From an uncultured Planctomycetota bacterium (GTDB lineage Bacteria > Planctomycetota > PLA2 > JAEUHO01): a stretch of 64,000 bases of DNA. Shown piece after piece: positions 4,210 through 44,493 of the stretch. A model generated the notes under the pieces. That model was not told the origin of the DNA. It did no database searches and saw only the letters and a program-made list of their open reading frames with translations. The DNA lies in NCBI GenBank assembly GCA_963752285.1, contig CAVVXN010000001.1, positions 128,001-192,000 on the forward strand. The letters are read 5' to 3'. The position numbers and the translations under genes were made by a program. Numbering within the stretch: the first letter of the stretch is position 1; every line of letters starts with the position of its first letter.

Positions 4210-4268
4210 GCGCGCATTCAAGAATGGTCCGGGGGGCTCGGCCGGAGAGCGACCCCCGGGAGGGCGCC

Positions 4269-5255
4269 GTGCAGAAGATTCGACTGGGAGCGGGCGGTCC
4301 CGAGATCCCCGTGCTGGGCCTGGGTTGCATGGGGATGAGCGAGTTCTACGGCGCCCCGGACGCCGAACGAGCCGTCGCCACGATCCAACACGCGCTGGAC
4401 CTCGGCTGCACGTTCTTCGACACGTCCGACATGTACGGCCGCGGGGAGAACGAGAAGCTCTTGTGCCGCGCCCTCGGGAACCGGCGCGACGAGGCCGTGA
4501 TCGCCACGAAGTTCGGGGTCCGCCGTTCCGCGGATGGCGGGTTCTCGGGCGTCAGCGGGAGCCCCGAGTACGTGCGCCAGGCCTGCGACGGTTCGCTCGC
4601 ACGCCTCGGCACCGACGTGATCGACCTCTACTACCAGCACCGTGTCGATCCCGACGTGCCGATCGAGGACACCGTGGGGGCGATGGCCGAGCTCGTCCGC
4701 GCGGGCAAGGTCCGTCGCCTCGGCCTCTCGGAGGCGGCACCGGACACGATCCGCCGGGCGCACGCCGTGCATCCCATCTCGGCGCTCCAGACCGAGTACT
4801 CGCTCTGGTCCCGCGAGCCCGAGGAGGAGCTCCTGGCCCTCACGAAGGAGCTCGGCATCACGTTCGTGAGCTACAGCCCGCTTGGACGGGGCTTCCTCGC
4901 GGGACGGTTCCACCGCCCCACCGACCTCGACGAGGGCGACGCCCGCCGGCACTTCCCGCGCTTCCAGGCCGGGAACTTCGAGGAGAACCTGAAGATCGCG
5001 GACGCCGTGACGGCGGTCGCGTCCGCGAAGGGCAGGACGCCGGCCCAAGTCGCGCTCGCCTGGGTACTCGGCGGGTCCGACCACGTGGCCGCGATCCCCG
5101 GGACGACCCGGGTCGCACGTATCGAGGAGAACGTCGCCGCGGCCGACCTCGTGCTCACGCCCGCCGAGCGAGAGCAGCTCGAGCGCGCGGCGCCTCCGGG
5201 TCGGGCCGCGGGGACGCGGTATCCCGAGCGCGGGATGCGTACGGTGCACCGGTGA
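4269..5255 (+). CDS. Aldo/keto reductase
   Basis: [42 protein letters not shown] and IPGT motifs; GTG start after GGAGGG. Confidence 0.95.
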
Positions 5256-5629
5256 CCGGCGCCGCGAACGAGTCGGCGCGGGCCAACCTCGACCGACGCG
5301 GCCGCTGGCTCCGCCTGGGAGCCGGCGTGCTGCTGCTCCCGGCGGTCGCGGGGACGTTCCTCTGGATGGTGGACCGCCACGTGGACCGGGTCGCGCGCCT
5401 CGCGCTCTTCGTGCCGCTCGTCGTCGCGTCGCTCTGCCTGGCGCAGGCGTCCGCCTCGACCTGAGTGGCCCTCGCGCGGCGCGGTCGGCGCGTGGTGGAC
5501 GGCGAGGAGTGTGTGGTCGGGGACGCGGCCGTCGCCGCGGCCCTCCGCGCCCGCGCGGCGCGGATCTGGACCGGATCGCTCCTCGCGGCGGCCGCCGTGA
5601 CGATCGCGCTCCTGCTCGCGCCGGCCTGA
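5252..5629 (+). CDS. Small membrane protein with in-frame TGA at 5462..5464 (putative selenoprotein, Sec71)
   Basis: GTG overlaps the AKR stop (GTGA). 70 codons, then TGA, then 54 more in-frame codons with coding-like bias ending in a hydrophobic helix; SECIS-like hairpin follows the TGA. Confidence 0.7.
5470..5507 (+). promoter_or_regulatory. Putative bacterial SECIS element
   Basis: GGTC at 5483..5486, 18 nt after the TGA. Apical stem GCGC(5479-82)/GCGC(5488-91) can extend past a bulged G; outer CCTCGC/GCGAGG pairing is also possible. Confidence 0.55.
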
Positions 5630-5633
5630 GGCG

Positions 5634-6260
5634 CTACTCGCTCCGCTTGTTCTCGACCTGCTGGATCACGCCGCAGGCGACGCGCGCGCCCGCGTTGCCG
5701 CTCGGCTGGGTCTTCAGGTCGTCCTCGCCCGCGTGGACGATCACCGCCTTGCCGATGATGGAGTCGGGTCCGTCGAGGCGCATGACCGGGTCGCGCCAGA
5801 CGAGGGTCGCCTTGCCGTCGGCGTCCGCCTCGACGTTCCCCAGGTCACCGACGTGACGGTCCGCCGACGTGCGCGCGCCGTGCTGCTTGTTCGTGGGGTT
5901 GAAGTGGCCGCCCGCGCTCGAGCCGTCCGGCGCGGAGCAGTCGCCCTTCTCGTGGACGTGGAAGCCGTGCTTCCCGGGCGTGAGTCCCGTGATCTCGGCG
6001 CGAACCACCACGACGTCCTTCTCCTGGGAGAAGGTGACGGTGCCCTTTACGTGGTTCCCCTCCGTCGGCTCCAGGTCCGCCGTCGCCTGGAGGCCGGAGG
6101 CCGAGGGGCTCGGCATCGCCTCGGACGGCGACGAGGGCGTCTCGCGCGAGGAGGCCTCGTTTCCGGCGGGCTCGTTCGCATGGTCGGCCGTGTCGGTCCG
6201 ACCGCAGGCGATCAGGCTCGCGAAGAGGACCACCGGCAGGATCGTTCGTGCACATCGCAT
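5634..6260 (-). CDS. sodC: Cu/Zn superoxide dismutase, lipoprotein
   Basis: Lipobox LIAC; HGFHVHEKGDC, AGGHFNP, RHVGDLGN, VIVHAGEDD and GNAGARVACG motifs. Confidence 0.95.
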   Translation of the reverse strand: MRCARTILPVVLFASLIACGRTDTADHANEPAGNEASSRETPSSPSEAMPSPSASGLQATADLEPTEGNHVKGTVTFSQEKDVVVVRAEITGLTPGKHGFHVHEKGDCSAPDGSSAGGHFNPTNKQHGARTSADRHVGDLGNVEADADGKATLVWRDPVMRLDGPDSIIGKAVIVHAGEDDLKTQPSGNAGARVACGVIQQVENKRSE

Positions 6261-44403: not shown

Positions 44404-44493
44404 TGGCGGAGGGAGAGGGATTCGAACCCCCGGTAGGTTTGACCCTACGCCGGTTTTCAAAACCGGTGCCTTCGACCGCTCGGCCATCCCTCC
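44404..44493 (-). tRNA. tRNA-Ser, anticodon UGA
   Basis: GGAGGGA/TCCCTCC acceptor stem, anticodon arm CCGGT-TTTGAAA-ACCGG, long variable arm, GGTTCGAATCC, discriminator G and encoded CCA. Confidence 0.97.

Follow-up and report, generated by a model that had tools for sequence, protein, structure and literature searches.

The question raised by this locus is whether a TGA inside a short open frame ends a gene or is read as selenocysteine (Sec). The frame lies on the forward strand of the window, the whole 64,000-nucleotide (nt) stretch of an uncultured Planctomycetota bacterium analysed here (GenBank assembly GCA_963752285.1, contig CAVVXN010000001.1, positions 128,001 to 192,000). It opens at GTG 5252-5254, the sole start codon upstream of a conserved asparagine (Asn12), runs for 70 codons to the TGA at 5462-5464, continues for a further 54 codons and closes at a second TGA at 5627-5629. 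Read through the first TGA, the product has 125 residues with U at position 71, corresponding to a gene of 125 codons plus terminal TGA at 5252..5629 (+). The initial annotation had proposed a hidden selenoprotein here, and its coordinates (a GTG overlapping the preceding stop, the TGA at 5462..5464, a length of 125 residues and a GGTC 18 nt on) are all correct. Comparative analysis indicates that 5252-5629 is very probably a real selenoprotein gene, equipped with a selenocysteine insertion sequence (SECIS) resembling that of fdhF and belonging to an apparently uncatalogued family of membrane proteins that occurs in cysteine (Cys) and Sec forms.

The in-frame TGA, read as selenocysteine at residue 71 (5462..5464, +), occupies a column conserved among relatives. 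A six-frame protein search of 61 related genomes, with TGA read as U, matches 18 of them, and 18 loci are true family members after inspection; rows L027 and L029 of this search are spurious on inspection. At 17 of the 18 loci the match covers both halves and contains exactly one TGA, and locus L026 has TGC at that position. In alignment A1 the TGA/Cys column is invariant, likewise N12, R21, L61, Q65 and G78, with V72, A75 and R80 nearly so. The profile of a larger alignment (A3, 141 sequences), searched against two further genome samples, finds the family in 14/201 genomes of a phylum sample, with one TGA in 11 of the 14, and in 17/81 genomes of the Gemmatimonadales-labelled order around locus L085, with one TGA in 15 of the 17. 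All three protein or profile searches that found TGA forms were blind to TGA. Sec forms predominate in two sampled lineages. In some genomes two Sec-form paralogues occur, namely L013 and L028 in genome G009, and G233:C50:217789-218142 and 230202-230558, the latter pair about 12 kb apart on one contig.

The spread of the family is wider than these samples. A DNA pattern derived from the alignment matched 116 stretches in a species-genome collection, 80 of which were fetched; 65 of the 80 are family members (E value below 1e-20, A1 profile), one is a weak and likely false match, and 14 are chance. The pattern favours the canonical hairpin, and these 65 loci are thus excluded from all hairpin statistics below. 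They carry at least seven phylum-level labels, including Gemmatimonadota, Myxococcota, Planctomycetota, Chloroflexota/Anaerolineales, Rokubacteria/Methylomirabilota, Latescibacterota, Zixibacteria and 'proteobacterium'. Across phyla, the 52-63 codons that follow the TGA are conserved in both sequence and length.

Beyond the Sec forms, the same column is occupied chiefly by cysteine. A profile search of 1.84 billion representative sequences returns 2541 matches at E<=1e-3, 907 at <=1e-10 and 17 at <=1e-30. The best 150 of the 2541 are whole proteins, mostly of 112-140 residues and up to 215, and their Sec column reads Cys in 147, Gly in 2 and Asp in 1. In a word-indexed database, 11 of 19 matches are Cys forms of 125-157 residues; the other eight are fragments of 64-70 residues that end right before the TGA, named 'hypothetical protein' where named, one of them being the window's own 70-residue product. 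The Cys members (e.g. P0021-P0170) equal the window protein in length and three-helix plan. Unlike Sec forms, they are predicted whole by gene callers, because the column holds Cys rather than TGA. Motifs common to both forms are NIGPxxRRxR, WRL, LGxFQAxxxT-C/U-V and LAxRGxRxxDxGxE, and the distant Cys forms P0002, P0003 and P0008 carry CNIGP...FCxGF. Most database members have Cys where the window protein would have Sec, and the family is large, two-form and widespread in soil bacteria. The proposal that the UGA occupies the position of a conserved Cys, not of a Trp, is thereby upheld, on the strength of the family's own Cys forms and not of DUF2892, the family to which the initial annotation had likened it.

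The codon directly after the window TGA is GTG, and 5465..5629 is itself listed as an open reading frame (ORF), an arrangement that would suit a split gene in which translation stops at the TGA and re-initiates at GTG 5465, giving polypeptides 1-70 and 72-125 without any Sec. GTG follows the TGA in 18/24 Planctomycetota-type members, but the codon there is not a standard start in the remaining 6/24 (GTC, GCC, GTA) and in 9/15 Gemmatimonadales-type members (ATC, GTC, GTA, GTT, ATT), and in Cys forms the same position is an ordinary Val, Ile or Ala. Such re-initiation would also leave unexplained the GGU-loop hairpin, the preference for GGT in its loop and the alternation of Cys with TGA, and we regard it as very unlikely.

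The half of the frame after the TGA was compared among 219 pairs of Sec-form genes, which are not independent of one another, by counting differences at each codon position. In codons 13-45 after the TGA there are 2434, 1787 and 4130 differences at positions 1, 2 and 3, the third being 1.96-fold the average of the other two; for the 30 codons preceding the TGA the corresponding counts are 2293, 1873 and 3489, a third-position excess of 1.67-fold. Downstream codon differences comprise 2335 that are synonymous only and 2933 that are non-synonymous. This substitution pattern, together with the conservation of the segment, bears out the earlier description of the downstream half as coding-like and indicates that it evolves as a coding frame. 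Taken alone, an open frame of 54 codons is unremarkable in a region of 72-77% G+C.

These results bear directly on simple termination, in which the gene would end at TGA 5462-5464 as a 70-residue two-helix protein and the downstream frame and hairpin would be fortuitous or terminator-like. Gene callers do give such products (P0011 has 70 residues, as the 64-70-residue database fragments would also suggest), at about 75% G+C long open frames are frequent, and the window hairpin is unexceptional. Chance accounts poorly, however, for a downstream segment conserved across phyla with a coding substitution pattern, for Cys forms that are continuous and align over both halves, and for a third helix that is packed with high confidence in the AlphaFold model described below. 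Termination at the first TGA is exceedingly unlikely on this evidence.

The candidate SECIS element follows closely. Its hairpin core (5479..5491, +) pairs GCGC 5479-5482 with GCGC 5488-5491 around the loop GGTCG (5483-5487), and GGTC at 5483-5486 lies exactly 18 nt past the TGA. A possible extended lower stem (5468..5510, +) appears in the minimum free energy prediction for the window sequence only. In Escherichia coli K-12 fdhF, taken from its own record, the sole in-frame stop is the TGA at codon 140, followed by 18 nt to the GGTC loop, which confirms the spacing cited in the initial annotation. In both genes the GGT of the loop also encodes glycine in frame, seven codons after Sec. The loop G and U of the fdhF SECIS contact SelB. 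The two elements also differ: in the window's family the loop is usually a 5-nt GGUnn rather than GGUC, closed by a shorter stem that consists almost purely of GC. The proteins are unrelated, that of the window being a small membrane protein and not a molybdopterin enzyme. A scan of 5400-5600 against Rfam yields chance-level matches only (E 1.4-5.2).

Among the 17 Sec forms of the 61-genome search there are zero insertions or deletions between TGA and loop, and a stem of 5-7 base pairs (bp) surrounds a 5-nt loop beginning with GG. For a seven-pair structure, 78.2% of cells pair, compared with 70.0% in shuffles; changes on both sides occur in five pairs, a result attained by 8/500 shuffles, and the observed covariation score is attained by 0/500. 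Unbiased counts come from the Sec forms sampled by protein or profile search, 24 of Planctomycetota type and 15 of Gemmatimonadales type. Of these, 21/24 and 13/15, respectively, or 34/39 in total, have a 5-nt GGN loop at +18 that is closed by a stem of four or more bp. The loop glycine codon is GGT in 17 of the 24 (GGG in 4, GGC in 2, GGA in 1) and in 14 of the 15 (GGG in 1), hence in 31/39 overall. Across 947 long ORFs of the window's genome, GGT makes up 7.1% of glycine codons and GGC 55.7%; the excess of GGT in the loop therefore points to selection of the third-position loop U at the RNA level. The two Cys forms of the same subfamily for which DNA was compared lack these features: L026 has a 2-bp stem and a GGC loop codon, and L197, which is close to Sec form L201, has a 0-bp stem, GGC, and AAG where Sec forms have CGC. 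The window hairpin alone is not thermodynamically unusual; it is comparative conservation that lifts the case above chance, because the TGA, both protein halves and the hairpin position are kept across many genomes. As a separate observation, Cys (TGT or TGC) replaces the Arg at +9 in Sec forms L015 and L175. In L015 a change in the facing stem arm preserves the pairing (ACACGC with GTGTGT), so that a single substitution would serve the variant protein and the RNA stem alike.

The machinery for selenocysteine insertion is encoded in the same genome, an assembly of 4.64 Mb in 5 contigs that is 89% complete. SelA (433 bits), SelD (356 bits) and tRNA-Sec (70 bits) all score above their curated cut-offs, and SelB reaches 317 bits against a cut-off of 242, such that selA, selB, selC and selD are all present. 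SelD itself contains one in-frame TGA. The selA and selD genes lie side by side (C1:734860-736999), and the SelD TGA falls in …GAGGU AAKL…; the hairpin downstream of it has no GGU loop by eye. No organism-specific SECIS consensus is drawn, because the SelD hairpin looks different. The only tRNA of the window, a tRNA-Ser (anticodon TGA) at 44404-44493 (-), scores 45 bits against the tRNA-Sec model, under its cut-off.

This complete machinery, coupled to an fdhF-type hairpin at the fdhF distance, also bears on the proposal that TGA is recoded as Trp, Gly or Cys, through near-cognate reading or a variant code. Some bacteria do have variant codes in which TGA is read as a residue. In the window, however, TGA is a true stop that ends both the present gene and the neighbouring reductase gene, and the residue that replaces it in homologues is Cys, the classic partner of Sec, rather than Trp or Gly, in nearly all of the best-matching proteins counted above; recoding of this kind is accordingly an extremely faint prospect. 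That the window copy is a pseudogene or an artefact of assembly or sequencing, as might be suspected in a metagenome-type assembly that is incomplete, is a practically negligible possibility, since the TGA is not unique to the window assembly: dozens of independent assemblies, spanning several phyla, have it in this column.

For the selenoprotein gene, the course of translation would follow the canonical bacterial pathway. On reaching the UGA at 5462-5464, the ribosome would encounter the hairpin 18 nt downstream, the loop of which (GGUCG) would recruit SelB with Sec-tRNASec; selenocysteine would then be inserted at residue 71, and translation would continue to the TGA at 5627-5629.

Several observations weigh against the assignment of the window locus as a selenoprotein gene and are collected here. 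Folding of 49 nt from the TGA gives z = -0.20, with 83/200 shuffles folding as well, as anticipated by the initial caveat that hairpins are common at such G+C. The alternating GC arms are permissive, as a partner slid by 2 still pairs in 55-62%. The canonical register is missing in 5/39 of the sampled Sec forms; by eye, two of the five have GCGC/GCGC stems with a 7-nt loop, one is shifted by one base, and L025 and L174 have no clear hairpin. Conservation of the hairpin is partly confounded by the protein motif A-R-G-x-R, which is often kept in Cys forms, and the Cys-form DNA controls of the same subfamily number two only. SelA is found in 53/61 relatives, including 15/16 TGA-form genomes, which makes its presence non-discriminating, and in the TGA-form genome G005, which is 92% complete, SelA is not detected. 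No RNA run is among the sequencing runs listed for the locus, which comprise DNA contig runs of a single soil study with small shares. Finally, the window copy is divergent, sharing 23-42% identity with relatives, with no N-terminal Cys and with Ala for the usual Phe before Q65.

The structure predicted for the family contains three transmembrane helices. AlphaFold2 run on A3 gives a model with a mean predicted local distance difference test score (pLDDT) of 95.6 and a predicted template modelling score of 0.85. A short helix (residues 4-10) precedes the N-terminal motif N12..R..R21 (consensus NIGPxxRRxR; 5285..5314, +), in which R21 is invariant and N12 conserved at >=90%, and which lies on the cytoplasmic side of helix 1. 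Helix 1 (residues 15-41; 5294..5374, +; pLDDT 97-98) is transmembrane by hydrophobicity, as is helix 2 (residues 46-68; 5387..5455, +) by both model and hydrophobicity; the latter contains Cys62, nine residues before the Sec position (-9), and ends in LxxxQ with Q65. Sec71 is placed in the turn that follows helix 2. The post-Sec cytoplasmic loop (5465..5524, +) comprises a helix at 72-76 and a beta hairpin at 79-82/85-88, and carries the motif VxxAxRGxR..D.G.E...D. Helix 3 (residues 92-122; 5525..5617, +) begins with a basic segment and ends in a hydrophobic transmembrane portion, in agreement with the third membrane helix that had been proposed.

The distribution of charge is consistent with a single orientation. 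Averaged across 141 members, lysine plus arginine number 5.2 on the N side and 5.4 in loop 2, compared with 0.6 in loop 1 and 0.3 in the C tail; under the positive-inside rule, this would place the N-terminus, together with the loop that bears Sec, in the cytoplasm. The predicted topology accordingly has the N-terminus inside and the C-terminus outside, with Sec71 at the cytoplasmic face directly past helix 2. In this topology N12, R21, Q65, G78 and R80 are expected near Sec71 at the same membrane face, beside the small beta hairpin. Further cysteines recur at a few positions. Specifically, a Cys at most six residues before N12 is present in 41/77 Sec forms and 77/139 Cys forms, and a Cys at -9 in 17/139 Cys forms. 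A Cys at +9 is found in 27/139 Cys forms compared with 1/77 Sec forms, a difference biased by the fact that most Sec forms were fetched with a pattern fixing that codon. Of these additional cysteines, the window copy has only the one at -9, Cys62.

Regarding family identity, the window protein matches zero Pfam families, and there is no meaningful Pfam match among the 18 or the 141 members. NCBIfam gives no model common to more than one member, the scattered single matches being unrelated, and the nearest ESM Atlas clusters are nameless 'hypothetical protein' entries. The commonest weak Pfam match is YgaP-like_TM (PF11127, formerly DUF2892), in 3/18 and 8/141 members, always sub-threshold and with a best E of 0.0011. 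This family, like the window's, has a short and basic motif at the N-terminus (E/D-R-x-x-R-x-x-x-G), followed by a pair of transmembrane helices and, soon after helix 2, by a conserved Cys, and by eye the DUF2892 copies of relatives read GLNLFQSAFTNWC where the window's family reads GLGLFQARAKTC. The window's family adds the cytoplasmic beta hairpin and the third helix. With hhalign, A3 and a set of 13 local DUF2892 domains match at a probability of 14%, over 12 columns confined to the N-terminal motif. The likeness to DUF2892/YgaP noted in the initial annotation thus extends to the motif level only, and kinship is not demonstrated. Membership of PF11127 is rejected for the window gene, which the model does not match; in the window's genome it finds only C5:2249862-2250026, the one true PF11127 domain there, which forms the last part of an open frame of 456 residues. 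In relatives, short PF11127 copies also stand alone, reading …GLNLFQSAFTNWCPMM….

MerT has about 116 residues and three inner-membrane helices, with functional Cys residues in the cytoplasmic loop that joins helix 2 to helix 3. Its plan is similar to that of the window protein and offers a possible analogy for soft-metal handling. Identity with MerT is rejected, as none of the 18 or 141 members has PF02411 in its list of families; unlike MerT, the window protein has no CC pair in helix 1. Selenoproteins of MerT type, listed as 'putative mercuric transport protein' (PF02411), have the Sec motif C/SxxU (PMC13188914, Table 1), compared with T-U-V here. In all, Table 1 of that inventory of prokaryotic selenoproteins, from 2026, has 119 families and subfamilies (PMC13188914), none of which is a three-helix T-U-V membrane protein. 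The part of the BSepDB article consulted gives 111 known families (PMC13326102), and the consulted part of the deep-Sep article adds nine, all within the same Table 1 (PMC12013277). The hypothetical protein GOS_A (PMC2398784, supplementary file 4) is a different sequence. A full-text literature search on DUF2892/YgaP-type, membrane, Planctomycetota or Gemmatimonadota selenoproteins gave nothing relevant in the titles and abstract starts of its results. The suggestion of a possibly unannotated family therefore agrees with the absence of a match among the 119 listed families, Pfam and NCBIfam.

In its local context, the gene starts within the end of an aldo/keto reductase gene (4224..5255, +; PF00248, E 3.1e-76), the tail of which reads GGTGA; GTG 5252-5254 overlaps the reductase stop TGA (5253-5255) in the 4-nt GTGA, and the two genes are probably co-transcribed. 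The reductase is a neighbour in just 3/76 family loci and is not a conserved partner. Other recurring neighbours among the 76 loci are AhpC/TSA (3), DinB_2 (4), cytochrome c (3), peptidase S9 (4) and isochorismatase (2), with DSBA, ArsP, DoxX and YceI as single cases. On the opposite strand, a Cu/Zn superoxide dismutase gene (5634-6260, -; PF00080, E 2.5e-51) converges on the selenoprotein gene with 4 nt between the stops; the N-terminus of its product (…LFASLIACG) resembles a lipoprotein signal, and SodC is a neighbour at the window locus alone among the family loci with neighbours scanned. In eight Anaerolineales-labelled loci (L043, L065, L074, L095, L096, L100, L104 and L112) a PucC-type major facilitator superfamily (MFS) transporter adjoins the gene, accompanied in five of the eight by a MerR-family regulator. 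This PucC-type MFS/MerR arrangement could be a clade-specific operon.

As to function, a tentative guess is that the protein provides a selenol or thiol centre at the membrane interface, on the cytoplasmic face, serving redox chemistry or the binding of soft ligands such as metals, metalloids or chalcogens. Members that possess a second Cys, either before N12 (about half of members) or at +9 or -9, would use it as a partner of this centre. Four results count against such an assignment. Pfam analysis of 150 flanking ORFs at 76 loci finds no conserved neighbour common across clades; Foldseek against the PDB returns nothing with E<=0.001; VIA-align reaches a Z of 7.0 at most (7d3u_G, root-mean-square deviation 5.7 over 90 residues), within the helical-bundle background; and no fused or longer forms are found at E<=1e-5, which is weak evidence. 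Extending the functional guess, the protein may conceivably represent a structurally new three-helix inner-membrane family, in which a single invariant Cys/Sec sits in an Asn-Arg-Gln pocket at the cytoplasmic surface, with chemistry outside that of thioredoxin-fold selenoproteins and with the Sec form prevailing in soil Gemmatimonadota and Planctomycetota; this broader picture is a speculative one. If it is true, the protein might, for example, capture a soft metal, metalloid or chalcogen species or pass it on, or it might reduce a membrane-borne oxidant, and the Sec form would rank among the commonest selenoproteins of soil Gemmatimonadota and Planctomycetota.

The consequences for annotation are more immediate. 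Annotation pipelines stop at the UGA, and for many soil and sediment genomes databases hold a stump of 64-70 residues in place of a protein of about 120. A simple curation rule for a model of the family would combine the T-U-V column with a GGU loop 18 nt downstream. Through its clean alternation of Sec and Cys and its confidently predicted fold, the family would offer a tractable case of a lone selenol at the inner membrane face. Collectively, the finding would add a membrane-embedded family without the thioredoxin fold to the bacterial selenoproteome, and would raise the known selenium demand of the soil-abundant Gemmatimonadota, Planctomycetota, Myxococcota, Chloroflexota and Methylomirabilota.

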